Part shown: piece after piece, positions 10,054 to 52,798 of the stretch
How positions within the stretch are numbered: the first letter of the stretch is position 1
How the letters are laid out: every line of letters starts with the position of its first letter
Assembly (NCBI GenBank): GCA_964389675.1
Contig: CAYMEV010000003.1
Location: 129,109 to 193,108 of the forward strand
Reading direction: 5' to 3'
DNA from: an uncultured Candidatus Sumerlaeota bacterium
Lineage (GTDB): Bacteria; CAYMEV01
DNA: 64,000 nucleotides
Translations under genes and position numbers: made by a program
Notes under the pieces: model-generated
What the model saw: only the letters and a program-made list of their open reading frames with translations
What the model was told of the DNA's origin: nothing
Database searches by the model: none

Positions 10054-10949
10054 TGAACAATCCGGTCAAAACAGATATCCTGATGGCTGCATACAACGGT
10101 GCAAAATTCATAAAGGAGCAGATTGATTCTATCCTTTCCCAGACTTATTCTGACTTTAGCCTGATCATCAGGGATGACGGGTCCGATGATGATACACAGG
10201 ATATACTGCATTCCTTTGAAAAGCTGGATAAAAGAGTAAGGATAATAAATGACGGCCTTGGGAATCTCGGGTATGTATCAAATTTTGAAAGACTCCTGTC
10301 AAATTCAGGATCAGACCTTATAATGTTTTCAGACCAGGATGACATATGGTTTCCGGATAAGATCGAGACATATATGGAAATAATCCGTGATGCCGATATG
10401 AATGCGCCCCTCCTTTTGCACAGCGACTGCATTGTCTGCAGTGAGGACCTGAGGATCATAAGAAAAAACTATATATCCTCAGCAGCCTATCAGGATTCAA
10501 TTAAAAACATGTTTTTCAGCTTTATGGTGCAGGGCTCGACAATGATGTTCAATAAAGCACTTAAAGAGATCTTCATGCCGTTCCTTCCAGAAACCTACCT
10601 TCATGACAGGTATATACATATCATGGCAGAGCTTTTCGGACGGAGGATATTTATACCAAAAACAACAATGTATTACAGACAGCACAAAAAAAACCAGATT
10701 GGATCAGGGGCAAGCATCAAAAACAAGCTGATCCATAAAAGGTATTTTGATCAAAGGGACAGATCATTGCTTGAAAAAATCCATAAACTGTATAATGACC
10801 GGATGGATGAAAATACAAAAAGGCTCTTTGATTCTTATTTTTTTATTACCGACCGTGCGAACAGCAGGTTTCGAAGGCTCTTAAAAGCTAATAGAAGCGG
10901 GATCAGAATGCATCTCTTCAAAAAGTTCTTTCTGCTGTTAAAGGGATGA
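10053..10949 (+). CDS. glycosyltransferase family 2 (rhamnosyltransferase-like)
   Basis: ILMAAYNG, IRDDGSDD, FSDQDDIW, HD and YRQH motifs; the ATG overlaps the upstream TAA (TAATG). Confidence 0.9.
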   Translation: MNNPVKTDILMAAYNGAKFIKEQIDSILSQTYSDFSLIIRDDGSDDDTQDILHSFEKLDKRVRIINDGLGNLGYVSNFERLLSNSGSDLIMFSDQDDIWFPDKIETYMEIIRDADMNAPLLLHSDCIVCSEDLRIIRKNYISSAAYQDSIKNMFFSFMVQGSTMMFNKALKEIFMPFLPETYLHDRYIHIMAELFGRRIFIPKTTMYYRQHKKNQIGSGASIKNKLIHKRYFDQRDRSLLEKIHKLYNDRMDENTKRLFDSYFFITDRANSRFRRLLKANRSGIRMHLFKKFFLLLKG

Positions 10950-11989: not shown

Positions 11990-13683
11990 ATGGAGATAAA
12001 GAGATTCTCCCTGGCTTTTGCCCTTATCTTAGCGGTTCTTGCATCAGGATGCAGAAAAAATGAATATAAACACCCGGGAAACTTAAACTTTATTCTGGTC
12101 TCACTTGATACAGTGAGACTTGACCGCCTTAGCCTTTATGGCAATGACAGGGATGTTTCCCCCAACCTTGCAAGGCTTGCCAGAAGAGACCTTGTATTCG
12201 ATCAGGCTGTCACTGTTACAGAAAATACTCTTATATCCCATGCATCTCTTCTCACAGGCCTTTTCCCTGCTGCGCACGGGACGACATACCTGAAAAACGG
12301 TGTCCCCCTTGGGCAGCGCTATGAAACAATTGCAGAGGATTTCCTCAATACAGGGCTTTACCAGACAGCGGGCTTTGCAGCCCATAAGGCCTGGCTAAGC
12401 AGTAAGTTCGGAATGGACCAGGGTTTTGAGGTTTTCAGCACTGGCTTCCGTTCAGCTGATTTTGTATTAAAAGAGGCAGAAGAATGGCTGAAGAGCAGGG
12501 ACAGGGATAAACCGTTCTTTCTCTTTATCCATCTTTTTGATGCCCACTCGGACAGGGATGGACGCCCTTATGACGCACCATGTCCATTCCTGCATAAATG
12601 GACAGGAAACTATGACGGGCCATGGCAAAACTGGGATACGATATCGCCAAACGGCAGTAATTTCCTTGCTGCAGTTTCAAAGAAAGAGATAATGCCTGGT
12701 GAAGGGGATATCATGCATATAAGGGATCAGTATGATGAGGGGCTTGCCTATACAGATCATGCAATATGCACTTTCCTTGAGGAGTTTGCTGACTTTGACA
12801 ATACTTTCATTATTATTACTGCGGATCATGGCGAGGCTTTCCTTGAACATGGGTCAATGCTCCATAGCTCCTTATATGATGAGATTGTAAGGATTCCCCT
12901 GATTATAATACCCCCTGCCCCTTTTGCGGACATGTATCGTTCGCCAGGGAGGATTCCAGACCAGGTGCAAATAGTTGATATTCGCCCCACAATTCTATCT
13001 ATGGCAGGCTTACCTCAGCCTCTTATCAGCCAGGGAACAAACCTGAACCCCTGGCTTCTGGGCCAGGTAGAGGAATGCCCAGCCGGACCCGCTCCTTTCT
13101 ATCATAATGCTTTGAGGTATAACGGCTACAAGCTGTATATTAAAGGGGATAAAAAAATGCTTTTTGACCTCAATGATACGCGGGGGGGGGGAGAGACTGG
13201 TAAACCTTTATGCGCGGGAAGAGTTTAATCCCCTGGCAGTTGAATTGGAGGGGTATCTGGGGGATTTTGCCAAACGGGAAAAAAAACGTCTTTNNNNNNN
13301 NNNAATGAGACGGAGACCCCAGCGTGCTACCCGCCTGGTAAGCACCCTGCACCTATGGTGTATTGGCGGGGTAGAAAGAGCCGCAGCCGGACACGCTTGT
13401 TTATATAGAAAATCTTTAGGGTTAAACGGAAAATACTGGTAAAGTAAAGTGGATAAAAAAAGTCTTTTGTTCCTCAGTAGTGGGGGGGGGGGGGGAAAAG
13501 ACTGTAAACCTCTATGGCAGTGAAGAGTTTAATCCCCTGGCAGTTGAAATGGAGGGGATACTGAGGGATCTTGCCCAAAGGGATAAAAAACTGCTTATGG
13601 ATCTAAAAATAACTGAAGGAGAGGATTCCTTAGGGTATTCTGAGGATGAGCTTGAAAAGCTGAGGAGTCTTGGTTATTTTTAA
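11990..13683 (+). CDS. sulfatase-like / alkaline phosphatase superfamily lipoprotein, interrupted by an assembly gap
   Basis: Lipobox LASGC; LVSLDTVRLD, TLISHASLLTG, FIHLFDAH, TADHGE. The C-terminal LEKLRSLGYF lies after the N gap. Start placed at ATG 11990 rather than 11858. Confidence 0.8.
13294..13303. other. scaffold gap (10 N) with low-quality duplicated flanks
   Basis: N run. About 13304-13490 is a degraded copy of about 13000-13190, and about 13190-13290 is a degraded copy of about 13490-13590, both running off a G tract. Confidence 0.9.
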
Positions 13684-36572: not shown

Positions 36573-39500
36573 TTATTTATCCATTGAAAGCTCTTTGAGC
36601 CTCTTTTTAAATTCGTACCTCGAAGTTTCCTTGAATTGATCCATATTTAACTCTTCTGCTTTGTCCCTGTATTCTGCTTTATTTGTAATTTTCCACAATT
36701 CATAGTAAATAACGGCAGTTTTTGCCTGGTCTGAGCTATTTTCCTGAAGCATCCTGATCAGGGCTTTAATATTCCCGTCTATACTATGTTTGAGAACCAG
36801 GGCGCTGAAGAGCACATCGTACCGTTCTATCTCACGGGCAATCAATATTGCTTCATCAAGCCTGTCAGGAATATCCTGCTTCCTGCCCATCAGGTGCAGC
36901 AGCTCAGAGATATGCAGTAAATAACTGCATAAATTATACTTAAAACCAATATCCCCGGCAATCCCTGCGGCTTTTTCAAAATGCTTCAGTGCTTGCTTGT
37001 AATTACCCTTCTCCATGTGGATCAGGCCGAAATTATCATGTGCCCTGCCTATCTGGTCTGTGTGCTTGATCTCCTTAGAGATTTCCATGTGCTTTATAAA
37101 ATTCAGCATTGCATTATCAGGGTCGCCCTGAGCCAGGAAAGCACTGCCGGTATTATGATAGGCATATAAAGACTCGTATTTATACCCGTTCTCATTGCAT
37201 ATTTCAAGCTGTCTCTTATAAAAATCTATAGCTTTGCCAAAATCATTCCTTTTATAGAAAAGGACGCCTATGTTCCCCAGAGCACCTGCTATCCCGCGTT
37301 TATCACCAATTTCACTGCATATTTTCATCTTTTTCGTATAGAATTCCATGGCTTTTTTGTAATTTCCCCGGTTAAAATAGATTACCCCGATATTTCCGAG
37401 TGCATAGCTGATCCCGGATTTATCTCCTATCTCCTGGCATATTTTCATCTTTTTATTATAGTACTCCATGGCCTTTCTGTAATTTCCCTGGTTGAAACAG
37501 AGGACGCCTATATTCCCGCAGGCATAACTGATGGAATTCTTATCTCCGATCTTTACAGCGATATCAAGTTTTCTTTTCTGGAAAGCAAAAGCTTTTTTAT
37601 AATTACCCTGGTCTGAATAAATGTTTGCAATGAGGCCGTAGGCTATGCTCATCATCCCCATGTCTCCCAGTGCCCTGCTGCAGTCAAGGTGCTTTTTGTA
37701 CCACTCCATGGCATTATCGTATTCACCCCTGTAATAGCATATATTGCCAAGGTTATTATAGACTGAATTTAACTCTGCCCTGTTACCTGTCTCCGTGGCA
37801 ATCTTGAGTTTTTTTAGCTGGTAATCCTTGGCTCTGCTGTAATCTCCTAGATTTATGAATACTGCTCCCAGATTGCCGGTTGCCCTTCCAATGCCTGTAT
37901 AATCATCAATGGACCTGTAGATATTGAGGCTTCTCTCATAATATTTCTGAGCCTCTTTATAATTGCACTGGTGCAGGTAAGCTGTCCCTATGTTTTCGTA
38001 GGATATTGCTGACCCTTTTTTATTATCAGTCATTTTGCATATCTCAAGGTTCTTTGAATGGTAAATTATGGCTTTGGTGTAGTTTCCCTGAAGGTTGTGG
38101 GCATACCCGATATTGCTGAAGGCTGTTCCCAGGCCGTTTAAATATCCGGAATCATCGGCAATTTTCAGAGACCTGCCTAAAAGCTTCCTCGCTTCCCTGA
38201 TCCTGCCTTTTTTTATCATGGTCTCAGCTATGGCATTCATACAGTCGACAGAAGTTTTTGTTTTCCGGTTTTTTTCTGAAAGGCTGAGTGCCTTTTTCAG
38301 TGTCCTGACAGCCTCATTCCACATTCCGGCGGACTGCATGATAATCCCTGTCCTTATGAGTATGTCAATTCTTTTATCAATATCATCATTGAGATAATCA
38401 AGGAGTTTCTTATAGAAGAATACGGCTTTCTCATTGTGATAATTGCCGGCTGATTTCCTGCCGGCAAGTTCAAGGAAAATAACGGCTTTTTGCCTGTTTT
38501 CCGCTTTATCATAATGCTGAGCAAGCTCTTCATAATGCTCTGGCAGATTGCCTGCGCGGACTTCCTCAATAATACTGCCTGCAAGGCCGTGAAGCCTTCT
38601 TAACCTCTCCTTCAGCTGTATTTCATATACTGCATCCCTTATGAGGGCATGCCTGAATATGCATCTGAGCTCAGAGGCCTTGCTCCATATATGTTCCTTC
38701 TGGCCCTTCTTAATTTTTTCAGAAAAATCCATTTCGCTCTCATTGAGCTTTACTGCAGAAAGAAGCCTTTCAAGGACTTTGAGCCCGAACTCCCTTCCAA
38801 GTACGGATGCTGTCTTTATGGTCTCTTTAAGCTCTGCTGAAAGCCTGTCTATACGGGCAAGTATTATCTGGCTGACCTTTGAGGGAATCCTGGTGTTTTC
38901 CCTTTTGAGCCTGTAATTACTGCCGAGCAGTTTATTTTCCGCAAGGTACATTATTATCTGTTCTGCAAAGAACGGAATACCCTCGCTCTTCTTCCAGACA
39001 AATTCGACAGTTGAATCATCTGCCTTTTCAGTTACCAGTTTTTTTAAAAGGAGCTGCCGGATATGCTCCCTGCTGAACACGCCGAGCCTTATCCTCTCAG
39101 TTCTTATGGGAAGGCTTCTGTGAATGTCCGGGATATTCACACCATCATTATCCCTGCATACGGCTGTAACTGCAACAGGGTAATTTTCAGCTGAAATCAG
39201 GAGGGACCTTAGCAAAAAAAGACTGTCATTATCTGCCCATTGCGCATCTTCAAGGACTATTAGAATAGGCTTTATTGATGCAGCCGTTTTAAAAAACCTG
39301 ATGACAGCAAAGACCGTGTTATCATAGCGCCCCTTGGCATCAAGCCGGAGGCTTATCTGATCACTGTAATCAAGGCCGATCATCGCACCGATCAATGGCC
39401 GGCAGTCCTCAATGCTGTCATTAGTATCATCTCTGAATTTATTTTCCAGAAACTCATCGAAAGCCCTTTCAAAACGGTCCCTGTTCTGATTTTCTGAATA

Positions 39501-41015
39501 TGATTCACTCTGGTTAAAAAAGGCCCTGAAAAAATGAATAAAAGGGTTGAAAGGCTTTTTTAATATCTCATCGCAGGGGAGATAGAATACATTACAGCCC
39601 CGGATATTATCTGTAAAATTTTCAATGAGGGCTGTCTTGCCAATACCTGCAGGGCCTGTTATATATATAAGGCCTGCCTGACTGCCTTTGAAAACAGGTT
39701 TTAAGAACTTTGCCAGCTCTGCAGTTTCATCCTGCCTGCCTATAAACTTTCCTTTAAAGAAGCCTGCAGTTCCAAATGCCTGCTTTGATCTCAGGCTGAA
39801 AACATCAGTCTTTTGCTTAAAGCCCTTAAAGAGCCTTGACCCTTCCGGCTCAGCGTCAAAATATGCAGGCAGTTCGGCTGCAAAGGATCTGTCAGCTGAT
39901 ATCCCCATCCAGGATGTATCCATCATGATCCTTGAGGAAAGATTGACAACATTTCCAAATGCTGTATATTCCTGCCTGATATCTGAACCTATAAAACCAG
40001 CAAAGGCAATGCCTGATGAAAGGCCGGCCCTGAAGGCAAATCCTCTGATCTTCCTCAGGCTAAGCGCAAAATCAGCAGCCCGCTGATAAAGCCTGTCCAT
40101 TGCTTTCGGAGCACCGAAGAGCACAAGGATCGTACCACCCTTGTCGCCGAAATCTATACGGTTAAAGTACCCGCCAAATATCCTGCAGTTTCTGATTACC
40201 TGTGCCAGGGCTTTCAGATAGCATCCCTTCTCCTTGAAATTAATAAAGCAGGAAACAATATCCCTGAATTCCCCCCTGTCTCTCAGTTCAAAAACAGGTT
40301 CCGGAATAAACTGAGATTCAGCCTGGCGAGGGACAGCGATTCTTTTTATTTTTCTGCGGCCGGGTATTCTTAAAGAAGCTGGAGATAACCTGTACCAGTG
40401 ATCTCCAATACTGCTTTTATCAATACTTGCTGATAATTTAGCCATAAAAAGGCTGTCAGCGATGATCTGCATTTCTTTGGCCTGATGCTCAGCTGATGCG
40501 CAGTTATCTACAGCCTCACCCCTGAAGAAGTAAGCCTTCTGGATCCCTGCATCAATTATCCTGAAGAAAACATTTCCAGAGGACAGGCCTATTTTTGCTG
40601 ACAACCTGAATTTGCCGAACCTGGTGATGGTTTTCGTTTTTTTTCTGAAAAGAGAGTTGATTGAAAAAGCTGCATTAAGGACATGCTCTGCCTTTCTCAC
40701 CCTGAATATTGCCGTGAATGCGTCCCCTGCAAAGGATGAAATAAATCCGCCATTTTCATATACAGCCTCAATGGATGGTGCAAAAAATCCATTTATTATT
40801 GAAGAAAGGACCTCTGCACCCTCTTTTCCATGTTTCATGAGATCTTGAGTCATTGCAGTAAAGCCTGATATGTCTATGAACATTGTAAAAGCTGATATTC
40901 TGCCTTTTATGCGGTTTCGGGAGAGATTCTCAGCAATGAAACCCGGGACCAGGTTGAGAGATGACCTGTATCCCTCGTTTTTCTCATGGGGAAAAGTCTT
41001 CTTTTTATCACTCAT
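36573..41015 (-). CDS. tandem class III cyclase - STAND ATPase - TPR protein, second paralogue
   Basis: FIDISGFT...FAGDA; FNRIDFGDKGG...YTAFGNVVNLSSRI; GPAGIGKT, LIVLEDAQW; long 40-aa TPR array. Confidence 0.9.
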   Translation of the reverse strand: MSDKKKTFPHEKNEGYRSSLNLVPGFIAENLSRNRIKGRISAFTMFIDISGFTAMTQDLMKHGKEGAEVLSSIINGFFAPSIEAVYENGGFISSFAGDAFTAIFRVRKAEHVLNAAFSINSLFRKKTKTITRFGKFRLSAKIGLSSGNVFFRIIDAGIQKAYFFRGEAVDNCASAEHQAKEMQIIADSLFMAKLSASIDKSSIGDHWYRLSPASLRIPGRRKIKRIAVPRQAESQFIPEPVFELRDRGEFRDIVSCFINFKEKGCYLKALAQVIRNCRIFGGYFNRIDFGDKGGTILVLFGAPKAMDRLYQRAADFALSLRKIRGFAFRAGLSSGIAFAGFIGSDIRQEYTAFGNVVNLSSRIMMDTSWMGISADRSFAAELPAYFDAEPEGSRLFKGFKQKTDVFSLRSKQAFGTAGFFKGKFIGRQDETAELAKFLKPVFKGSQAGLIYITGPAGIGKTALIENFTDNIRGCNVFYLPCDEILKKPFNPFIHFFRAFFNQSESYSENQNRDRFERAFDEFLENKFRDDTNDSIEDCRPLIGAMIGLDYSDQISLRLDAKGRYDNTVFAVIRFFKTAASIKPILIVLEDAQWADNDSLFLLRSLLISAENYPVAVTAVCRDNDGVNIPDIHRSLPIRTERIRLGVFSREHIRQLLLKKLVTEKADDSTVEFVWKKSEGIPFFAEQIIMYLAENKLLGSNYRLKRENTRIPSKVSQIILARIDRLSAELKETIKTASVLGREFGLKVLERLLSAVKLNESEMDFSEKIKKGQKEHIWSKASELRCIFRHALIRDAVYEIQLKERLRRLHGLAGSIIEEVRAGNLPEHYEELAQHYDKAENRQKAVIFLELAGRKSAGNYHNEKAVFFYKKLLDYLNDDIDKRIDILIRTGIIMQSAGMWNEAVRTLKKALSLSEKNRKTKTSVDCMNAIAETMIKKGRIREARKLLGRSLKIADDSGYLNGLGTAFSNIGYAHNLQGNYTKAIIYHSKNLEICKMTDNKKGSAISYENIGTAYLHQCNYKEAQKYYERSLNIYRSIDDYTGIGRATGNLGAVFINLGDYSRAKDYQLKKLKIATETGNRAELNSVYNNLGNICYYRGEYDNAMEWYKKHLDCSRALGDMGMMSIAYGLIANIYSDQGNYKKAFAFQKRKLDIAVKIGDKNSISYACGNIGVLCFNQGNYRKAMEYYNKKMKICQEIGDKSGISYALGNIGVIYFNRGNYKKAMEFYTKKMKICSEIGDKRGIAGALGNIGVLFYKRNDFGKAIDFYKRQLEICNENGYKYESLYAYHNTGSAFLAQGDPDNAMLNFIKHMEISKEIKHTDQIGRAHDNFGLIHMEKGNYKQALKHFEKAAGIAGDIGFKYNLCSYLLHISELLHLMGRKQDIPDRLDEAILIAREIERYDVLFSALVLKHSIDGNIKALIRMLQENSSDQAKTAVIYYELWKITNKAEYRDKAEELNMDQFKETSRYEFKKRLKELSMDK

Positions 41016-43105: not shown

Positions 43106-44341
43106 ATGAATACAGAACAGAAAAAGAAAGAAATTTTAGGATTCTTTGAAAAAAACAGGGAAAACCTCAAACGAAAACTGATAAGCCTTCTTGGAGAAAT
43201 GGTTGCTCAGAAGACTATAAATGTTGTTTCAGAAAAGATGCCTGAATTTCCCTTCCTTAAGCACAGGGGTGAAGAGTACAGGGTCGGAGATATTGCAGTA
43301 AGAGAGCTTGAGAAGCTCGGGATAAGGTATGAGGTGTTCGGGAAGCAGAAGGAGAGGCCTAATATAATTACGCATTATGGAAGTAATATTAAGGAAAAGA
43401 GGCTTTTTATAGCATCCCATATGGATATAGTACCTCCCGGTGATGGATGGGATACTGATCCGTTTGAAATGAAGGTTGAAGGCAATAAGGCGACAGGAAG
43501 GGGAGTGCTTGACAATAAAGGACCGCTTGTAAGCTCTATTATTGCACTTGAGATCCTCAAAAGCGTTATAAAAGAAGATGATATAGAGGGGGATTTTCAG
43601 GTAGCTTTCCTGTCTGATGAAGAAGCGCATGAGGAAGTAGATTACGGTATCGGCTACCTTCTTGAGGATAAGCTGATAAACCCCACCTATGCCATCATAC
43701 CTGATATCGGGGGCAATATGCTTGAGATCGACATAGCTGAAAAGGGGAGGGTAGTTGCAAAGGTAATAGCAAAGGGAAAGCAGGCGCATGGTTCAACACC
43801 TGAAAGGGGAGATAATGCAATTAACAGAATGGGCAGATACCTCTCAGCCCTTGAGAAATACACATTAAAGCATGGAGATGATCCTATTTTGGGCGATCCT
43901 ACGATAAATGTCGGCGAAATAAGAGGAGGTTCTGCTCCGAATATTGTCCCGTCTGTCTGTGAAGCAATACTCGATATAAGGCTTGTCAGGGATATGACCC
44001 CTGAAAAGATAAAAGAGGAATTGCAGGGGATCCTTCCTGATGAGAAGGATAAGATAGAAATTATAATCAAAGGTGGAACATACCCGCACAGCATATCACC
44101 TGACAATGAGCTTGTAAAATCTGTTATTGAAAACAGCAGGAAATATTTCAAAAAGGATCCCAAACCGTTCGGGAGCGGAGGGGGCACCTATGCAAAGAAG
44201 CTTAATATGTGCGGGATCAAGGCCATAGGTTTCGGGCCCGGTGATGACAATGCCTTTCATATGGCCAATGAATATGTTGAAATTGACCAGCTCCTGGATT
44301 TTAGCGTGCTGATATGCCTGATAGCCCTGGACCTGATCTAA
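43106..44341 (+). CDS. M20 family metallopeptidase/amidohydrolase (ArgE/DapE-like)
   Basis: SHMDIVP, GRGVLDNKG, SDEE, AHGSTPERGDNAI, FHMANEYV. Confidence 0.9.
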   Translation: MNTEQKKKEILGFFEKNRENLKRKLISLLGEMVAQKTINVVSEKMPEFPFLKHRGEEYRVGDIAVRELEKLGIRYEVFGKQKERPNIITHYGSNIKEKRLFIASHMDIVPPGDGWDTDPFEMKVEGNKATGRGVLDNKGPLVSSIIALEILKSVIKEDDIEGDFQVAFLSDEEAHEEVDYGIGYLLEDKLINPTYAIIPDIGGNMLEIDIAEKGRVVAKVIAKGKQAHGSTPERGDNAINRMGRYLSALEKYTLKHGDDPILGDPTINVGEIRGGSAPNIVPSVCEAILDIRLVRDMTPEKIKEELQGILPDEKDKIEIIIKGGTYPHSISPDNELVKSVIENSRKYFKKDPKPFGSGGGTYAKKLNMCGIKAIGFGPGDDNAFHMANEYVEIDQLLDFSVLICLIALDLI

Positions 44342-44772
44342 ATGACAAGGAATTTGGAAGACTCCTGTTCGAGTGGGAGATTCATCCTGCCGGAAGAAAT
44401 AAAAAGAAGCTGGCCCTGCTGTGCATCGTGTCCGGGGTCTTTCTGATGTTTCTGATAGAGGTTACAAAAAGCTTTATAATAACATATCTTATACTGCTTA
44501 TATATTTATTTACATTGAAGTCTTTTATATTTAAAACCTACTATAGGCTTTATGAAAAGGGCCTTTGTACTGTACAGCTTGGTTTTAACGACAGGAGGAG
44601 CTACAGCAGTTTCATCTCAGTTTTCCGCAGTGATGATTCCCTGCTGTTGTCCTCTGTCAGGAAATATTCTTTTATAGCAAAAACCAGGGGAATTGAGCTG
44701 GTTTTTGAGGATCCGGGACTGAAAAAAAGGGTTGCGGATTTTCTGGAGGGGAAGATTGCAGAGGATCACTGA
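44314..44772 (+). CDS. hypothetical 2-TM membrane protein with small C-terminal beta domain
   Basis: Two hydrophobic segments then YRLYEKGL, reminiscent of bacterial PH-like proteins; overlaps both neighbours. Confidence 0.6.
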   Translation: MPDSPGPDLNDKEFGRLLFEWEIHPAGRNKKKLALLCIVSGVFLMFLIEVTKSFIITYLILLIYLFTLKSFIFKTYYRLYEKGLCTVQLGFNDRRSYSSFISVFRSDDSLLLSSVRKYSFIAKTRGIELVFEDPGLKKRVADFLEGKIAEDH

Positions 44773-45031
44773 GGAAGAAAGAGAGCTTGTCGACAGGATT
44801 GCTCAGAAGATTTATGAGAGGCGTATGTCTGTACCTGCCATATTATTCCTTGAGATGTCAAAACCCCTGTGCTTCGTAGGGTCATCACTGATAGCATTCC
44901 TTGAGCCTGTTCTGCAGAGCATTATTCCATACCGGGATGTTGAAAAGTTCAGAAGCTTTATTGAAAAGAGGGAGAATGTAGAATATCTCATCGAGCAGAT
45001 AGAAAAGAAGGATATTAAAGAGGAAAAATAA
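44756..45031 (+). CDS. small conserved-looking hypothetical protein
   Basis: TTG start at 44756 preceded by SD GGAGGGG; PAILFLEMSKPL...ENVEYLI. Confidence 0.7.
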   Translation: MQRITEEERELVDRIAQKIYERRMSVPAILFLEMSKPLCFVGSSLIAFLEPVLQSIIPYRDVEKFRSFIEKRENVEYLIEQIEKKDIKEEK

Positions 45032-45062: not shown

Positions 45063-46895
45063 GTGGATACCAAATTACCGGAAAAGATTAATTCAATCCT
45101 TGCAACGGATTGCGGGAGCACCACGACAAAAGCCATCCTGATAGAAAAAAAGGGAGATGAATACAGGCTTATTGTCAGGGGGGAAGCTCCTACCACAGTT
45201 GAAGCTCCTGCTGAGGATGTCACCAAGGGTGTTCTGAATGCTGTGAAAGAGGTAGAAGAGCTTGCCGGAAGAAAGATCCTTAATGGAGACAAGATAATTA
45301 CGCCTATGAAGGACGGAGAAGGGGTCGACATCTATATTTCCACCTCTTCTGCAGGAGGAGGCCTGCAGATGATGGTGGCCGGGGTTGTAAAGAACATGAC
45401 CGCTGAGAGTGCGGCAAGGGCTGCCCTGGGAGCCGGTGCTATCGTTATGGATACTATTGCTTCAAATGACAGGAGGCTGCCCTATGAGCAGATCGAGAGG
45501 ATAAGGCATCTAAGGCCGGACATGATACTGCTTTCAGGCGGGATCGACGGTGGGACGATCAAGCATGTCGTTGACCTGGGAGAAAGGATCAGGGCCGCGA
45601 ATCCCAAGCCGAGGCTGGGAATAGGCTTCAAACTGCCGGTTATATATGCAGGTAATAAAGATGCGGTTGAGGAGATCGAACATCTCCTGAGGGATATTAC
45701 TTCCCTTGATGTAGTGCCAAATATAAGGCCGAAGCTGGAATTTGAAAACCTGCTTCCTGCAAGGGAGAAAATACATGACCTTTTTATGGAGCATGTTATG
45801 GCTCAAGCGCCTGGATATGACAAGCTCATGACATGGACGGATGTTCCCATCATGCCTACTCCGGGTGCGGTGGGCCTTATTATACAGACTATTGCCGAAC
45901 TGCAGAAGATACAGGCAGTAGGTGTCGATATAGGAGGTGCAACAACTGATGTCTTCAGTGTATTTCAGAACACATTCAACAGGACTGTAAGCGCAAACCT
46001 CGGTATGAGCTATTCAATATCAAATGTTTTTGCGGAAGCAGGGCTTGAAAATGTAATGAGATGGGTGCCTTTCAATATCAAGGAGAGCGAACTTCGAAAC
46101 AGGATCAAGAATAAGATGATAAGGCCAACCACTATTCCTCAGATGATGGAAGAGCTTGTGCTGGAGCAGGCTGTAGCAAAGGAAGCGCTGAGGCTTGCTT
46201 TCATTCAGCATAAGGAATTTGCAGTTGGCCTGAAAGGTGTGCAAAAGCAGAGGACAATATCCGATGCATTTGACCAGAAGCTTTCCGGTGAAACACTTGT
46301 GGATATGATGGAGCTGGACCTTCTTGTAGGATCAGGGGGAGTCCTGTCGCATGCGCCGAGAAGGCACCAGTCAGCTCTTATGCTGATCGACGCTTTCCTG
46401 CCGGAAGGAATTACCATGCTTGCTGTTGATTCCATTTTCATGATGCCTCAGCTCGGGGTACTTTCAACTGTCCATAAGGTTGCCGCTATGGAGGTCTTTA
46501 ACAAGGACTGCATGATCAAGCTTGGTTCATGTGTTGCCCCGGTCGGCAATGCAAAAAGGGAGGGGATTGAGATCCTTGAAGTAGAGCTTGAAATGCCAGG
46601 AGGGGAGAAAAAGGAATTCAATCTGAAGTACGGGGAGATGAAGCTTATCCCCCTTGGAGTTGATGAAAAAGCAAAAGTTATTCTTAAACCGCTAAAGGGG
46701 TTTGATATCGGTGAGGGAAAGAACAAGAAGAAAGAGGCATATGTTGAAGGCGGTGTTGTCGGTGTTATCTTTGACGGAAGAGGGAGGAACCCGTTGAATA
46801 TTCCTTCCGATGAGTCTGAAAGAGTAAGAAAGCTATTAGAATGGATCGAAGAACTGAGGGTCTACCCCCGGGATAAGATCCAGAATCTGTATTAA
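45063..46895 (+). CDS. GlmL/MutL (glutamate mutase accessory)-family ASKHA/actin-fold ATPase
   Basis: Phosphate-1 TDCGSTTTK, SSAGGGL, LLSGGIDGG, MPTPGAV, phosphate-2 VDIGGATTDV, adenosine loop GSGGVLSH; GTG start with SD GGAGG. Confidence 0.85.
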   Translation: MDTKLPEKINSILATDCGSTTTKAILIEKKGDEYRLIVRGEAPTTVEAPAEDVTKGVLNAVKEVEELAGRKILNGDKIITPMKDGEGVDIYISTSSAGGGLQMMVAGVVKNMTAESAARAALGAGAIVMDTIASNDRRLPYEQIERIRHLRPDMILLSGGIDGGTIKHVVDLGERIRAANPKPRLGIGFKLPVIYAGNKDAVEEIEHLLRDITSLDVVPNIRPKLEFENLLPAREKIHDLFMEHVMAQAPGYDKLMTWTDVPIMPTPGAVGLIIQTIAELQKIQAVGVDIGGATTDVFSVFQNTFNRTVSANLGMSYSISNVFAEAGLENVMRWVPFNIKESELRNRIKNKMIRPTTIPQMMEELVLEQAVAKEALRLAFIQHKEFAVGLKGVQKQRTISDAFDQKLSGETLVDMMELDLLVGSGGVLSHAPRRHQSALMLIDAFLPEGITMLAVDSIFMMPQLGVLSTVHKVAAMEVFNKDCMIKLGSCVAPVGNAKREGIEILEVELEMPGGEKKEFNLKYGEMKLIPLGVDEKAKVILKPLKGFDIGEGKNKKKEAYVEGGVVGVIFDGRGRNPLNIPSDESERVRKLLEWIEELRVYPRDKIQNLY

Positions 46896-46908: not shown

Positions 46909-48033
46909 ATGGGAGAAGCATATACACCCGGACTGAAAGTCACGGGGATGACCATAGTAAAGAAAGAAAGAAGACTTCCCTTGCTGGGCGATGTCCTGCC
47001 TGCAAAAGGAGAACCGGTGAAGGCTGAAGATATTGTTGCAAGAACGGAACTGCCTGGCCCTATAACTCCGGTCAATGTTGCTAATGTGCTTTCATGCCTT
47101 CCTGAAGATATTCCCAATCTTTTATGTAAAAAAGCCGGCGATAAAGTTGCAAAGGGCGAGACCATAGCCTCACTGAAGACATTTTTCGGCCTGTTCACAT
47201 CTCTCTGCAAGGCCCCTACAGGAGGCACAATAGAGGATATATCCAAGACTACAGGACAGGTTTATATCAGGGGTAATTCCATCCCTGTAGAGATCAGGGC
47301 ATATATTGACGGTGAAGTCATTGATGTTCTGGAAAAAGAGGGTGTAATAATTCAGACAGAAGGCGCATTTATCCAGGGCATATTTGGAATCGGGCCGGAA
47401 ACCATAGGAGAAATAGATGTTATTGTAGAAAGCCCTGATGATATACTTACTGAGGACATGCTGCATGAAAGGCATGAAGGAAAGATCGTTGTCGGCGGAA
47501 GCCTGGTTACATATGAAGCATTGAAAAAGGCTGTGGACCTGAAAGTCAATGCAATTATAGTTGGAGGCTTCAATGACAAGGACCTCAGGGAATTTCTCGG
47601 TTACGACCTTGGTGTAGCGATCACAGGCAAGGAAGATAAAGGAATAACACTTGTCATAACTGAAGGCTTCGGCAAGATCAATATTGCAAAGAAGACATTC
47701 GACCTGCTTGTTGCCAACCAGGGCAATAAAGCATCCGTAAACGGCGCAACCCAGATCAGGGCAGGGGTAATAAGGCCTGAGATCATAATTCCGAAGAAAT
47801 ACGAAAAGAAAGAGGATATTGATGGTGCTGTATCTGAGGGGCTTGTCCATGGGACTCAGGTCAGAATGATAAGGGAGCCTTATTTCGGGTTTTTGGGGAA
47901 AATTAAGGAAATGCCCGTAAAACTTAAGATGATGGAGTCTGAAACAATGGTGAGGACTGTAATAGTCACCCTTGATGATACAGGCGAAGATGTACTTGTT
48001 CCAAGAGCAAACGTAGAGATAATAGAGACATGA
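46909..48033 (+). CDS. conserved hypothetical soluble protein (barrel-sandwich-hybrid repeats, C-terminal KOW/SH3-like)
   Basis: KGEPVKAEDIVA and AGDKVAKGETIA...KAPTGGTI (biotinyl/lipoyl-like); IQGIFGIG, ITEGFG; GTQVRMIREPYFG...VPRANVEII; SD AGGAGG. Confidence 0.75.
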   Translation: MGEAYTPGLKVTGMTIVKKERRLPLLGDVLPAKGEPVKAEDIVARTELPGPITPVNVANVLSCLPEDIPNLLCKKAGDKVAKGETIASLKTFFGLFTSLCKAPTGGTIEDISKTTGQVYIRGNSIPVEIRAYIDGEVIDVLEKEGVIIQTEGAFIQGIFGIGPETIGEIDVIVESPDDILTEDMLHERHEGKIVVGGSLVTYEALKKAVDLKVNAIIVGGFNDKDLREFLGYDLGVAITGKEDKGITLVITEGFGKINIAKKTFDLLVANQGNKASVNGATQIRAGVIRPEIIIPKKYEKKEDIDGAVSEGLVHGTQVRMIREPYFGFLGKIKEMPVKLKMMESETMVRTVIVTLDDTGEDVLVPRANVEIIET

Positions 48034-48067: not shown

Positions 48068-49324
48068 ATGAGAAAAAGGATACTCCTTTTCATTTTGCTG
48101 ATGATCTGTATTTCTTTTATCCATGCTTATTCTCAGGAGAATTCCGGAGATGGTGAGGCAGTAATGCCGGAGGATAATGAGGCTGTCAGCCTCAAGCCTC
48201 TCAGCATTGTGGTGCCAGGCCCCGTTGATGTAAGGGCAGTGGATCATCCGAATGACAATGGCAAGGCCCTTATAGTGCAATGGGACCATTCGCCATTGCA
48301 GAAAGAAGGCAAAATTCTGCTTTACCGGATCTACAGGTCAGAAAAAAGGACAGGGCCCTTTGCGGAGATATCCACTGTCCCTGCACTGGAGAATGAATTT
48401 GTGGATTCAACGGTCTATCCCGACAATCCTTTCTACTACAAGGTAATAGCAGAGGATAAAAAGGGAAACCATTCACGTATGGACATATTTGCCTCAGAAG
48501 GAATTGCAACTGCGCAGTTCTTTCACAGTGGAAGGCTGAACATGCTTATAATACTTGCAGTCCTGTGTTTTTTCATCCTTTACAGCATCAATCAGGCAAA
48601 AAAGAACCCCTATGGATATATAAGGCCTATTGCAGGACTGGCAGCTGTTGAAGAAGCGATAGGCAGGGCTACGGAAATGGGAAAGCCTACCCTGTATGTA
48701 TCAGGCATAATGGATATGGATGATGTTCAGACGATCGCAGGCATAACCATCCTCGGCCAGGTTGCAAAGATGTGTGCGGAATATGATACTCCCATACTGG
48801 TGCCTACCTGCAGGAGCGTAGTCATGTCAACATCACAGGAGGTTGTAAGGGAGGCTTACCTGAAGGCAGGCAGGCCCGATGCATTCAATCAGGACAGGAT
48901 CTGGTACATGACAGATGACCAGTTTGGTTTTGCTGCAGGTGTTGACGGCCTCATAATAAGGGAAAAGCCCGCTGCTGTATTCCTTCTCGGGAGGTTCTAT
49001 GCTGAATCCCTTATCCTTGCTGAGACAGGAAATTTTGTCGGTGCGATACAGATAGCAGGAACTGCAGAAGCAAGCCAGCTTCCGTTCTTTGTCACAGCCT
49101 GCGACTATACTCTGATAGGGGAAGAGCTATTTGCCGCGAGTGCCTACCTTTCAAGGGATCCCATGTCAGTTGGAAGCCTGAAGGGCCAGGACTGGGGAAA
49201 GGCGGTCATTATTGCAGTGCTTGCACTTGGATTCATCTTCTCGATCGTATCTTATTTCAGGCAGGATATGGGTATGTCTTTTGACATCTTTGAAGCCTTC
49301 AAAAATCTATTCAAGGTGGTATAG
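48068..49324 (+). CDS. FN3 + DUF6754-like membrane protein
   Basis: Signal peptide; FN3 (IVQWDHS..YRIYRS..YYKVIA); TM; IRPIAGLAAVEEAIGRATEMGKP, FYAESLIL, LIGEELFAASAYL; C-terminal TM. Confidence 0.75.
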   Translation: MRKRILLFILLMICISFIHAYSQENSGDGEAVMPEDNEAVSLKPLSIVVPGPVDVRAVDHPNDNGKALIVQWDHSPLQKEGKILLYRIYRSEKRTGPFAEISTVPALENEFVDSTVYPDNPFYYKVIAEDKKGNHSRMDIFASEGIATAQFFHSGRLNMLIILAVLCFFILYSINQAKKNPYGYIRPIAGLAAVEEAIGRATEMGKPTLYVSGIMDMDDVQTIAGITILGQVAKMCAEYDTPILVPTCRSVVMSTSQEVVREAYLKAGRPDAFNQDRIWYMTDDQFGFAAGVDGLIIREKPAAVFLLGRFYAESLILAETGNFVGAIQIAGTAEASQLPFFVTACDYTLIGEELFAASAYLSRDPMSVGSLKGQDWGKAVIIAVLALGFIFSIVSYFRQDMGMSFDIFEAFKNLFKVV

Positions 49325-49326
49325 CT

Positions 49327-50283
49327 ATGAAGTACAGAATTCCAGTTTTGATTACTATGATAACGGGCATTATTATGGTCATAAAAGAATTCATTCCCCA
49401 CAATCCCTTTGACAGAATGGATGATATACTGCAGGACTGGTATATGATCGTAGCATCATTTGCCATCATTCTCGGAGTGGAAAGCCTTCTCCATGTCCAT
49501 GCCATGAAGATCTCATTCAAGAGGAAGGACTGGCAGTATTCAGTGGTCCTTATAGTGACTCTTTTCCTGATGGCATTCTGCGGGCTTTTCGGGGGTATAG
49601 AGGATAAAGAATTTTATAATCTGAAAGACGAACAGGACATTAATACTGTGCTTAATATGGACATTCAGCTTGCGGACGGCACTGTTAAGATAAGCAGCCT
49701 GATCCCGGAAGGAACGGCTGATAAGGGAAAATTCATGTATGAAAACCAGGGCAGTATTATGCTTGATATAATAAATGAAAAGAATGTATCAGCAGTCCAC
49801 CCTGAAAGGGGATATAAAATTCCGGCCCAGTACCAGGAGAAAAAGAACCAGAGCCTTCAGAAGACGCTTAAAGACCAGCAGATATTCCTGCACAGGGGGG
49901 GGCTGAAATATGCATGGATCTTCTATCTCTACGGAGGTTTCCAGTTCAGTTACAGATTCATCTATACTGCCCTGGGAAGCACCATGTTCAGCATCCTTGC
50001 TTTTTTTGTCGCATCTGCCGCCTACAGGGCTTTCAAGGCAAGGACATTTGAAGCGACCCTCCTTCTGCTTTCAGCCTTTATTGTTATGCTGGGGAGAGTG
50101 ACATTCGGTGAAATGATAGCTGATATTACATCCATCAATATCCCCTTTATAACCGAGTGGCTTATTGATTATCCGAATACAGCCGGTCAGAAGGCTATCA
50201 TGATAGGCATTGCGCTCGGGATCATCTCAACATCCCTGAGAGTTATCCTTGGCATAGAAAAATCCTACCTTGGTAGGGATTAA
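49327..50283 (+). CDS. hypothetical multi-pass membrane protein
   Basis: About 6 TM segments with a ~110 aa soluble insert; STMFSILAFFVASAAYRAF, PNTAGQKAIMIGIALG. Confidence 0.8.
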   Translation: MKYRIPVLITMITGIIMVIKEFIPHNPFDRMDDILQDWYMIVASFAIILGVESLLHVHAMKISFKRKDWQYSVVLIVTLFLMAFCGLFGGIEDKEFYNLKDEQDINTVLNMDIQLADGTVKISSLIPEGTADKGKFMYENQGSIMLDIINEKNVSAVHPERGYKIPAQYQEKKNQSLQKTLKDQQIFLHRGGLKYAWIFYLYGGFQFSYRFIYTALGSTMFSILAFFVASAAYRAFKARTFEATLLLLSAFIVMLGRVTFGEMIADITSINIPFITEWLIDYPNTAGQKAIMIGIALGIISTSLRVILGIEKSYLGRD

Positions 50284-50293
50284 GGAGGTTTAT

Positions 50294-51157
50294 ATGGATA
50301 TTTTAGAAAAGATTAAGAACCTTGACAGAAGGATAATTTTCCTGATCATATTCCTGGCTGTAGCTGTTCCGATTTTAGTCCCTATAGGCCTGCCTGTAAA
50401 GCCCTCTCCCATTGTTCAGAAAGGTTATGACGCAGTTGAGGCACTTGATGAGGGATCGGTCGTGCTGGTATCCTTTGATTATGACCCGTCAGCTGAACCT
50501 GAGCTGTATCCGATGAGTGTTGCAGTGGTCAAGCACCTTATGAAGAAAAGGACAAAAATAATTACAATGGCTTTATGGCCTGCCGGTGCAAAGCTTGCAG
50601 AGGATACACTCAAAGAGTCCGTTGCCTATATGGAAGCAGAGGAAAAATATACCCCTGTATACGGTGAAGATTATGCCAATATAGGATTTATGGCAGGAGG
50701 CCTTATTGTTATGACCTCAATAGGCAAGTCGCTTCCGAGAACATTTCCCGCGGATTTCTATAAGACCCCTGTTGAATCGCTTCCCATTATGAAGGGTGTT
50801 GAGAACTATTCAAATATTGATATGGTCATTACCCTTTCTGCAGGAGACCCCGGTGTCCCATACTGGGTCATGGTTGCGGCAACAAGCTATGGTAAGAGCC
50901 TGATAGGCGGATGCACAGCTGTTTCAGCGCCTCAGCTTTATCCCTATGTCCAGTCAGGCCAGCTTACATCTCTTATCGGAGGGCTAAAAGGGGCAGCTGA
51001 ATATGAAACCCTGGCCAGTGTTCCTGCAAAAGCCACAAAGGGCATGGATTCTCAGTCGATTGCTCACCTTATGATAGTAATAATGATAATTATCGGAAAT
51101 ATTACTTTCTTTGTTGAAAAACAGAGACTGAAAAAACTAAAGAAGAAAATAAGGTAA
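50294..51157 (+). CDS. hypothetical membrane-anchored alpha/beta-domain protein
   Basis: ATG 50294 with SD TAAGGAGGT; N-terminal TM, FDYDPSAEPEL, GGLKGAAEYE, C-terminal TM and a Lys-rich tail. Confidence 0.8.
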   Translation: MDILEKIKNLDRRIIFLIIFLAVAVPILVPIGLPVKPSPIVQKGYDAVEALDEGSVVLVSFDYDPSAEPELYPMSVAVVKHLMKKRTKIITMALWPAGAKLAEDTLKESVAYMEAEEKYTPVYGEDYANIGFMAGGLIVMTSIGKSLPRTFPADFYKTPVESLPIMKGVENYSNIDMVITLSAGDPGVPYWVMVAATSYGKSLIGGCTAVSAPQLYPYVQSGQLTSLIGGLKGAAEYETLASVPAKATKGMDSQSIAHLMIVIMIIIGNITFFVEKQRLKKLKKKIR

Positions 51158-51170
51158 AGGGAGGCAGATA

Positions 51171-51884
51171 ATGGAAGCAGTAGGTATTTGGTTAGCGGCT
51201 TTTTTGACACTTTGCATATTCAGCTTTTTATATAAAGACAATCCCTTCTATAAGTTTGCAGAACACTGCTTTGTGGGTGTATCTGCCGGGTTCTGGATGG
51301 CTACCTATTATCATAATACCATAGACCCCAAGCTACTGAAGCCAATAGGGGATTTTATCTGGGAGCTTTCTAACAGCAATGTGAAGGTACTGGCAAAAAT
51401 AAACAATGAGCAGGTGGAGATCCAGGGGATAAGCCCCACATATTACTCCATCCTTCTGATCATCCCCCTTGTCTTTTCCATAATGCTTCTTATGAGGATC
51501 ATTCCAAGGTTTTCATGGATGAGCAGAATGGGCATATCGCTTATGGTCGGTACAGGAGCGGGCCTTTATATTATAAATTACCTCAAATCAAATGTGGTAA
51601 GCCAGATATACAGCGCAATCGTCCCGATATTCAGCAACAGCAATGTAGGCTGGTGGGTTATCATAGGTAATTTTACACTCCTTTTCGGAACGCTTTTCGG
51701 CCTTCTTTACTTCTTTTTCTCCAAGGCTCATAAAGGTGCTTTCGGACTGGGTGCCAAGATAGGTATCTATTTCATAATGATATCCTTCGGTGTATCATTC
51801 GGCTATACAGTTATGGCAAGGGTCAGCCTTCTCATAGGCAGGCTTGATTTTCTTATAAACACCTGGCTTGGAGGGATAATATAA
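51171..51884 (+). CDS. hypothetical multi-pass membrane protein
   Basis: SD GGGAGG; about 6 TM segments; SFLYKDNPFYKFAEH, FGYTVMAR. Confidence 0.8.
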   Translation: MEAVGIWLAAFLTLCIFSFLYKDNPFYKFAEHCFVGVSAGFWMATYYHNTIDPKLLKPIGDFIWELSNSNVKVLAKINNEQVEIQGISPTYYSILLIIPLVFSIMLLMRIIPRFSWMSRMGISLMVGTGAGLYIINYLKSNVVSQIYSAIVPIFSNSNVGWWVIIGNFTLLFGTLFGLLYFFFSKAHKGAFGLGAKIGIYFIMISFGVSFGYTVMARVSLLIGRLDFLINTWLGGII

Positions 51885-51889
51885 CTTTC

Positions 51890-52798
51890 ATGCCGGACCT
51901 GAGCACTGAGATATGCGGTATAAGGCTTGATAATCCATTGATACTGGCATCAGGCATACTGGGGGTCAACAGGGGATGCCTGAAGCGGGTTGAAATGGAG
52001 GGGGCTGGTGCAGTTACAATAAAGAGCATAAGCGTTGAGACCAGATCAGGCCATAACAGCCCGATAATTGTGCCATTTGATGGTGGTATGCTGAATGCTG
52101 TGGGCTATTCCAATCCGGGGCTGGAGGAAGCATACAGTGTTTTCAAGGGCCATGATGTCAATATCCCTGTATTTGCCAGTATTATAGGCCAGAAACCTGA
52201 TGATTTTGCAAAGATCATTGAGAGATTTGAAGATATTGAATTCTGCGGGTATGAGATCCCTGTCTCATGCCCGCATACACCAGGATTCGGGACTATGGGG
52301 GGGCAGGACAGCCCTGATTTTATAAGGTCGGTCCTGAAGAGAATAAAGGAAATAACCTCAAGGCCGGTATTTGTGAAGATACCCCCGATTGACAGAAATA
52401 TAGGGGATTATGGCAGAATGATAGAGGATGCGGGGGCATCGGGGATCACAGCTGTCAATACAGCAGGCCCGGGTATGATAATTGATATAGAATCCAGAAG
52501 GCCCTTCCTGGGATTTAAGAAGGGGGGGCTGAGCGGCCCTGCTCTCAGGCCTATAGCTGTAAGGTGTGTTTATGAGCTTTATGAAGCGGTCAAAATACCC
52601 GTTATAGGCACAGGAGGGATCACCACAGGTGAGGATGCTGTTGAAATGATAATGGCCGGTGCAAGTGCCCTGGGTATCGGCACAGCAGTATATTTCAGGG
52701 GATTGAACGCCTTTTCCAAGATCAGGGCGGAGATCCAGGACTGGCTTTCCAGGCATGAAATAAGCGATATAAGTGCTATCAAAGGCACCGCTCATTAA
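51890..52798 (+). CDS. pyrD: dihydroorotate dehydrogenase, class 1 catalytic subunit
   Basis: LASG, TIKS, MLNAVGYSNPG, SCPH, AVNT, GGLSG, IGTGGI. Confidence 0.85.
   Translation: MPDLSTEICGIRLDNPLILASGILGVNRGCLKRVEMEGAGAVTIKSISVETRSGHNSPIIVPFDGGMLNAVGYSNPGLEEAYSVFKGHDVNIPVFASIIGQKPDDFAKIIERFEDIEFCGYEIPVSCPHTPGFGTMGGQDSPDFIRSVLKRIKEITSRPVFVKIPPIDRNIGDYGRMIEDAGASGITAVNTAGPGMIIDIESRRPFLGFKKGGLSGPALRPIAVRCVYELYEAVKIPVIGTGGITTGEDAVEMIMAGASALGIGTAVYFRGLNAFSKIRAEIQDWLSRHEISDISAIKGTAH

Follow-up and report, generated by a model that had tools for sequence, protein, structure and literature searches.

Inverted or dual-topology homologous pairs are an established arrangement among membrane proteins, with EmrE-type proteins, NqrD/NqrE and RnfA/RnfE as examples, and the known pairs are recognisably homologous. 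Here we consider a candidate for such a pair in a stretch of 64,000 nucleotides (nt; the window) from an uncultured Candidatus Sumerlaeota bacterium (GCA_964389675.1, contig CAYMEV010000003.1, 129,109-193,108, forward strand; coordinates are window-based throughout). Three genes lie close together on the + strand at positions 48068-51157 and encode a DUF6754 protein (A), a protein with six predicted transmembrane (TM) segments (B) and a protein of 287 amino acids (aa) (C). A polytopic protein (D) is encoded after C, and a small protein (n), an ATPase of the MutL/GlmL family (M) and a 374-aa protein (S) are encoded upstream of A. An earlier, sequence-only reading took A and C for distant homologues that face opposite sides of the membrane. 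Our own interpretation, to which we give an even chance of being right, is that A and C are different, not detectably homologous subunits of A-B-C-D, a conserved inner-membrane module of four genes that is so far uncharacterised.

A and C are like the inverted pairs in that they share a similar layout, are closely encoded and have opposite orientations as predicted from their lysine and arginine (K+R) counts. They differ in being bitopic with large soluble domains rather than small and polytopic, and of the hallmarks of such a pair, opposite orientation was found by prediction and detectable homology was not found. A second comparison, in outline only, can be made with the Na+-NQR/Rnf-type complexes. 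As there, one bitopic subunit would carry a cytoplasmic domain and another a periplasmic one, accompanied by two polytopic subunits (~205-240 aa in most loci; 318 and 237 aa in the window) and by a peripheral protein, S, whose barrel-sandwich signal is RnfC_N-like but weak (E 0.0063). Unlike the Na+-NQR/Rnf complexes, however, B, C and D have no Pfam match to any Rnf/Nqr family, no Cys stands in an invariant or near-invariant column of B or D, no flavin or Fe-S motifs were found, and the module has an actin-fold ATPase in place of the redox input. M matches PF13941 over its full length, as do the MutL/GlmL accessory proteins of glutamate mutase and ornithine degradation, but it falls below the equivalog cutoffs, has a C-terminal extension and is linked to genes for membrane proteins. 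The likenesses to inverted pairs, to Rnf/Nqr and to bitopic proteins with a docked actin-fold ATPase are analogies from general background, not memberships. A is a clear member of DUF6754 (PF20539), whose proteins share the layout of variable ectodomain, TM helix, conserved domain and TM helix; this family has no known function, and none was found in the literature searched. None of the seven proteins n to D matched the PADLOC models of anti-phage defence at E<=0.01.

Conservation of the A-B-C-D module

In a set of species-representative genomes (one per species), relatives of C are encoded in at least 594 matched stretches. Searches with C gave 1977 relatives at E<=0.001 and 5318 clusters at 50% identity. 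Seventy-nine related loci, many of them cut by contig ends, were fetched and searched for each gene with tblastn; gene order was taken from crude open reading frame (ORF) calls and families from all-against-all clustering of 1006 ORFs. C was detected in 79/79 loci, B and D in 78 each and A in 74, with counts of 33 for S, 29 for M and 25 for n. The four genes are contiguous in the order ABCD in 41/79 loci, and ABC or BCD is contiguous in 55/79. Going by record titles, the A-B-C-D order is kept in WOR-3, Stahlbacteria, Latescibacterota, Zixiibacteriota, Fermentibacteria and Cloacimonadota, as well as in Coatesbacteria, Eisenbacteria, Binatia, Methylomirabilota and others. The only families that recur in more than 13 loci are n, M, S, A, B, C and D. 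The other neighbours in the window, namely formiminotransferase-cyclodeaminase, an M20 peptidase, a 152-aa ORF (g152) and dihydroorotate (DHO) dehydrogenase, were found in 0/79. In the window itself, the seven genes from n to D lie on one strand with spacings of 2-34 nt.

The four genes also multiply together. Whole ABCD units occur at least twice in seven loci and three times in two of them (three units in L035 and L051; two or more in L013, L038, L062, L069 and L076). At L029 the n-M-S genes lie downstream of D, not upstream of A, with another A-B pair after them. C and D are fused in the proteins P0349 and P0367 (598 aa each), where the linker holds an additional hydrophobic segment, and P0244 carries two C domains in tandem. 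Two further relatives of C, P0279 and P0339, have large insertions at about residues 108-125, one with a CARDB domain and the other with HEAT repeats. Gene content, conservation, synteny and fusions are direct observations, as are the charge bias and the fold class of C described below.

In one WOR-3 chromosome (L032) a DUF4388 protein and, at a greater distance, a MotA/ExbB-family protein are encoded after the module (9457-10323 and 12449-13078 of that locus); a neighbourhood of this type recurs in only ~7-13 loci.

Comparison of A and C

Family alignments were made for C (alignment A1, 36 relatives), A (A2, 36 relatives), S (A3), B (A4) and D (A5), with a sixth (A6) of 26 A sequences that includes paralogous copies. 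Wider profiles comprised 239 relatives of C and 120 of A, the latter raised to 239 with 120 long, more diverse DUF6754 proteins.

The sequence-only reading had paired three segments of the DUF6754 domain of A with three of C. The six quoted strings were all found, starting at residues 185, 325 and 370 of A and 35, 200 and 250 of C, and the domain was correctly named, with a Pfam match (E 8.1e-117, 389.3 bits against a cutoff of 27) that pairs residues 148-395 with profile positions 2-249 of 257. The proposal that the two proteins align along their length as distant homologues did not hold; none of the sequence or profile tests rose above its controls. The best BLASTP match between A and C had an E of 0.19, pairing the FN3 part of A with the N-terminus of C and not the quoted segments. 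Local alignment of the soluble parts as single sequences gave a z-score of 1.2, equalled by 40/300 shuffles; semi-global alignment gave 3.4 (3/300 shuffles), the only mildly raised value.

The profile comparison by HHalign, which had been suggested as a check, gave probabilities of 0.9-3.5%, with reversed and unrelated controls scoring equal or higher. The highest of these, 3.5%, came from 36+36 sequences and aligned the TM helix alone, and 239+120 sequences gave 1.1-1.6%. Restricted to the soluble domains, the score of 12.6 (E 0.39) fell below the 16.1 of the reversed control; with 239+239 sequences it was 18.1 (E 0.065, probability 0.9%) against 16.0 reversed. Adding secondary structure from AlphaFold 2 (AF2) models gave E 0.14 vs 0.51 reversed. 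Among unrelated pairs, the DUF6754 domain scored 19.7 with B and 26.1 with S. The latter match, to S residues 195-333, was the top cross-comparison (E 0.007, probability 5.5%) and is not significant. Our own profile-profile Smith-Waterman comparison of A and C gave z 1.5 in local mode (4/60 column shuffles equal) and 0.0 in semi-global mode (29/60). Segment pairs 1 and 2 of the earlier reading rank 8/55 and 28/52 among sliding windows, and 16/55 and 35/52 reversed windows equal or exceed them. The conserved motifs differ as well, acidic E/D invariants in A vs E70, D126, D154, T208, Q223 and Y237-E238 in C. As judged from these comparisons, the resemblance of A and C is at chance level.

The polytopic partners gave a similar result. 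B and D have no detectable relationship (hhalign probability 0.26%), and therefore nothing indicates an old two-gene duplication of the form (A+B)/(C+D), which was considered and rejected. B has no Pfam match above cutoff and no NCBIfam match, and D has neither. Most orthologues of B are ~207 aa long and lack an insertion of ~110 aa that the window's copy carries at residues ~92-205, in the loop after the third hydrophobic segment (alignment A4); the acidic flank suggests that this insertion lies outside the cytoplasm.

Domains, orientation and neighbouring genes

The opposite orientation of A and C stands as a prediction (features in Table 1). TM segments were called at a hydropathy threshold of 1.6, the signal peptide was judged by hydropathy, not by a dedicated predictor, and topology statistics are K+R counts in the flanks of 239 C and 120 A relatives. 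The layout of signal peptide, FN3 and TM helix that the earlier reading gave for A is supported by the hydrophobic segment at residues 5-23, by Foldseek matches to FN3, and by the TM helix at 157-175 with its +3 C-flank. For C, the basic residues before the first TM helix (K6, K8, R12, R13) and the KKLKKKIR tail are both in the translation. The bias is also a property of the families: C relatives average 3.81 K+R in the N-tail and 4.37 in the C-tail vs 1.63 and 1.82 on the domain side, and A relatives average 3.78 and 3.08 in the domain-side flanks vs 1.69 and 0.89 on the other side. Charge bias, the signal-like N-terminus and the types of ectodomain together indicate that the soluble domain of A is probably cytoplasmic and that of C probably extracytoplasmic. 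The domains would thus face opposite sides, as the sequence-only reading had it, and the outside-type domains fused to members of these families agree with this.

In A, at least 90 aa precede the TM helix in 115/120 relatives, and 106 of those 115 have an N-terminal hydrophobic segment. AF2 modelled the FN3 part well (predicted local distance difference test, pLDDT, 90-96 over residues 51-130), and the fold assignment is secured by Foldseek matches to FN3 chains in the PDB (E 8.6e-07, target-normalised template modelling score up to 0.78) and by a profile search that matched titin and other Fn3 chains. Pfam fn3 was not found at E<=0.1 on the window's copy, and it matched a paralogue at L029 at E 0.00016. 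The overall mean pLDDT for A was 68.9, and residues 190-290 are modelled as beta-alpha units (means of 53-89 per 10-residue block). Foldseek with this model returned FN3 matches only, as did the A2 profile against the PDB; the A6 profile gave nothing meaningful there, and a search of the ESM Atlas with the DUF6754 domain, skipping PF20539 clusters, gave no usable match. No paper on DUF6754 or PF20539 was found in the literature searched.

The DUF6754 domain itself is strongly conserved, with 62-93% identity to the window's copy among the 119 near-length relatives listed. E203, E313, E319, D346, E352, E353 and D375 (the last just past residues 180-372) are invariant in 239/239 sequences. In long forms of the protein (P0390-P0509, 733-1159 aa) the single FN3 is replaced by PQQ-like beta-propellers, several FN3 domains or RHS repeats, and DUF6754 is C-terminal in 120/120, with a median of 15 residues beyond the match. 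The source names of these long forms include Eremiobacterota, Armatimonadota and Vulcanimicrobiota. A HAD-like reading of the domain, from D216-x-D218 after strand 1, was dropped because D216 and D218 are replaced in 7/26 and 8/26 sequences of A6 once paralogous copies are included, and no profile match supported it. These replacements are frequent in the A copies of ABCD arrays.

C is taken to start at the ATG at 50294, not the TTG at 50270, because its relatives start there (alignment A1). It has no Pfam family; the sole NCBIfam match is to the CLC_0170 family (E 0.029, 14.3 bits, below the cutoff of 30), and Pfam searches with each of the 36 A1 members at E<=5 returned scattered noise only. 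Its AF2 model is confident (mean pLDDT 91.9, predicted template modelling score 0.85), with six strands between residues 39 and 241 and a long helix at 246-286. The domain has no close solved structure in the PDB: the best Foldseek match (E 3.4e-04, query-normalised template modelling score <=0.33) is generic Rossmann-like, and matches are scattered over aldolases, GT-B halves, short-chain dehydrogenases/reductases and eIF2B. The A1 profile had 0 PDB matches at E<=1, and the ESM Atlas returned only the protein's own unnamed family. Conservation among the 239 sequences is highest at E70, P73, D126, G131, D154, T208, Q223, Y237 and E238. D11, R12 and R13, next to the first TM helix, are kept in 223, 226 and 224 of them, and two polar residues inside the second TM helix are near-invariant (H258 in 234/239 and N269 in 238/239). 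A Cys nucleophile elbow (G-G-C207-T-A) was considered and dropped because position 207 is Cys in only 140/239.

Table 1. Features of the module and its neighbours in the window (abbreviations as in the text).
Feature	Position	Strand	Description	Basis
1480-aa protein	36573-41015	-	Guanylate_cyc, AAA_16 ATPase domain, long TPR arrays	
g152	44314-44772	+	152-aa ORF, one hydrophobic segment	
gene n	44732-45031	+	99 aa as called; conserved core of ~75 aa with hydrophobic hairpin; just upstream of M	
gene M	45063-46895	+	610-aa actin-fold (ASKHA) ATPase, MutL/GlmL family	
gene S	46909-48033	+	374-aa soluble protein	alignment A3
gene A	48068-49324	+	418 aa; signal-peptide-like segment, FN3, TM, conserved alpha/beta domain, TM, short tail	
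A residues 1-23	48068-48136	+	hydrophobic segment after MRKR, taken as signal peptide	hydropathy segment 5-23
A residues ~50-146	48215-48505	+	FN3 domain, predicted outside the cytoplasmic membrane	AF2, Foldseek, profile matches
A residues 157-175	48536-48592	+	TM helix; C-flank QAKKNPYGYIRP = +3	hydropathy 2.31
A residues 180-372	48605-49183	+	DUF6754 soluble domain, predicted cytoplasmic	alignments A2, A6; K+R bias
A residues 379-397	49202-49258	+	second TM helix, then short tail (family mean 12 aa)	hydropathy 2.56
gene B	49327-50283	+	318 aa, six hydrophobic segments	
B residues ~92-205	49600-49941	+	insertion	alignment A4
gene C	50294-51157	+	287 aa; TM, alpha/beta domain, TM, basic tail	
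C residues 13-31	50330-50386	+	first TM, after conserved D11-R12-R13	AF2 helix 12-28; hydropathy peak window residues 7-25
C residues 32-250	50387-51043	+	alpha/beta domain, six strands alternating with helices, predicted extracytoplasmic	AF2, K+R bias
C residues 256-274	51059-51115	+	second TM helix	hydropathy, AF2
C residues 275-287	51116-51154	+	basic tail EKQRLKKLKKKIR, 8 K+R, predicted cytoplasmic	translation, hydropathy/flank charge
gene D	51171-51884	+	237-aa polytopic membrane protein; fused to C in some organisms	alignment A5
DHO dehydrogenase gene	51890-52798	+	5 nt past D	Pfam DHO_dh

Upstream of A, M belongs to Pfam PF13941 (MutL) at the family level (E 3.1e-126, residues 12-483), and residues 484-610 form a C-terminal extension of ~125 aa past the match. 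It scores under the NCBIfam equivalog cutoffs (GlmL 222.6 vs 475; Or-4 208.6 vs 600) and under that of the GlmL family subfamily model (163.7 vs 204.05). No mutase was found next to M among the scanned window genes, and M could not be placed among the glutamate-mutase accessory proteins. The literature searched held no papers on PF13941 or MutL-like proteins and only irrelevant ones for GlmL/ASKHA. S is strongly conserved, with a mean column identity of 64%. The barrel-sandwich-hybrid signal at residues 74-118 is weak, RnfC_N at the E given above and Biotin_lipoyl at E 0.032 both falling below their cutoffs, and no PDB relative of S was found by single sequence or profile. For n, relatives match window 44724-44999 (from segment offsets), and neither Pfam nor NCBIfam gave a match.

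The ORF g152 overlaps the start of n by ~40 nt; with tblastn matches in 0/79 loci, it may belong to this lineage only, or may not be a gene at all. The DHO dehydrogenase (DHO_dh E 1.3e-68) that follows D is likewise linked to the module in 0/79 loci. The 1480-aa protein on the opposite strand matches Guanylate_cyc at E 2.1e-10. Rfam gave no RNA family in the window, and a promoter/terminator scan gave nothing decisive within the cluster.

Alternative readings and meaning

If A and C are distinct subunits of one module, A would expose a variable ectodomain (FN3 here, beta-propellers elsewhere) on the outside and keep its conserved acidic domain in the cytoplasm. C would place its conserved domain in the periplasm with both termini in the cytoplasm, and B and D would be polytopic partners. 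We infer that the four proteins could associate by way of their TM helices as a single complex in which the DUF6754 domain, as the cytoplasmic site, is coupled to a periplasmic site made up of the C domain and the ectodomain of A. Where it is co-encoded, as in the window, the ATPase M, with S and n, might drive or regulate the complex from the cytoplasmic face, and the likeliest role would be a transport or envelope-assembly step.

Several findings weigh against this account. With the widest profiles, hhalign aligns A and C colinearly across 144-151 columns (E 0.046-0.14), the two proteins are alike in their layout of TM helix, alpha/beta domain and TM helix, and undetected homology is no proof of non-homology. 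The topology is a prediction from the positive-inside rule and domain types, and the model of the DUF6754 domain is unreliable over residues 290-372, with block-mean pLDDT 31-57 for residues 291-380 though these are the family's most conserved part. Lastly, n-M-S adjoins the module at just 25-33/79 loci by tblastn, roughly one quarter to two-fifths, and therefore ABCD may work without n-M-S, or the ATPase genes may lie elsewhere.

It is distinctly unlikely, in our assessment, that A and C are highly diverged paralogues of an old duplication, inserted in opposite directions so that the same alpha/beta domain lies in the cytoplasm and in the periplasm. Such an origin would fit their common plan, a ~200-aa alpha/beta domain between two TM helices, and the position of each gene ahead of a polytopic partner (~205-240 aa in most loci). 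It would also fit the colinear alignment, which pairs helix, beta1, alpha, beta2, alpha and beta3 in similar order and, with 239+239 sequences, scores slightly above its reversed control (18.1 over 16.0; E 0.14 vs 0.51 with secondary structure), as well as the single-sequence semi-global z of 3.4. However, an alternating beta-alpha order is typical of many unrelated Rossmann-like folds, and such domains tend to align in this way. All hhalign probabilities for the pair are <=3.5%, a value reached by the TM helix alone; unrelated proteins of the cluster outscore C against the DUF6754 domain (26.1 and 19.7), and the reversed control once beat the forward alignment (soluble domains, 16.1 vs 12.6). 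The profile z-scores of 1.5 (local) and 0 (semi-global), segment pairs no better than the window background, a second-half register unlike that of the earlier reading, the differing motifs and the lack of homology between B and D (probability 0.26%) all point the same way.

We give equally little credence to the view that A and C are functionally unrelated neighbours whose adjacency reflects operon packing and not one complex. The A and C families have no assigned function in Pfam, NCBIfam or the literature searched, which would suit it, but the A-B-C-D order is kept over many phylum-level lineages, duplication takes in all four genes as one unit, and C and D are fused in some proteins. That the topology call is wrong is also unlikely; both soluble domains would then lie on one side, for example with the C-terminal half of DUF6754 partly membrane-embedded or re-entrant. 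The positive-inside rule is a statistical one, the stretch at A residues 291-380 is poorly modelled (block means 31-57) despite its extreme conservation, and two segments within it reach a 19-residue hydropathy mean of ~1.2 by hand calculation, below the threshold of 1.6. Against a shared side stand the consistent K+R bias in 120 A and 239 C sequences, the signal-peptide-like N-terminus of A with its FN3, beta-propeller or RHS ectodomains, the CARDB domain inserted in one relative of C, and the additional hydrophobic segment in the C-D fusion linker. We return to A and C as distinct subunits of a conserved module, for which complex formation, ATPase coupling and function are what we infer.

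A more far-reaching proposal is that A-B-C-D with n-M-S represents a new class of trans-membrane machine, widespread in mostly uncultured phyla and driven by an actin-fold ATPase, with A and C as paralogues beyond recognition in opposite orientations and one ancestral alpha/beta domain serving both membrane faces; we consider it highly improbable. The inverted homologous pair is not supported, and that part is therefore no discovery. What is left is a conserved and widespread module, in which B, C and D have no Pfam family and A belongs to a DUF, and for which no solved relative, defence match or paper was found. In many lineages the module is tied to an actin-fold ATPase. If its role were established, thousands of hypothetical membrane proteins from candidate phyla would gain an annotation, and a new coupling of cytoplasmic ATP use to the periplasm could come to light.

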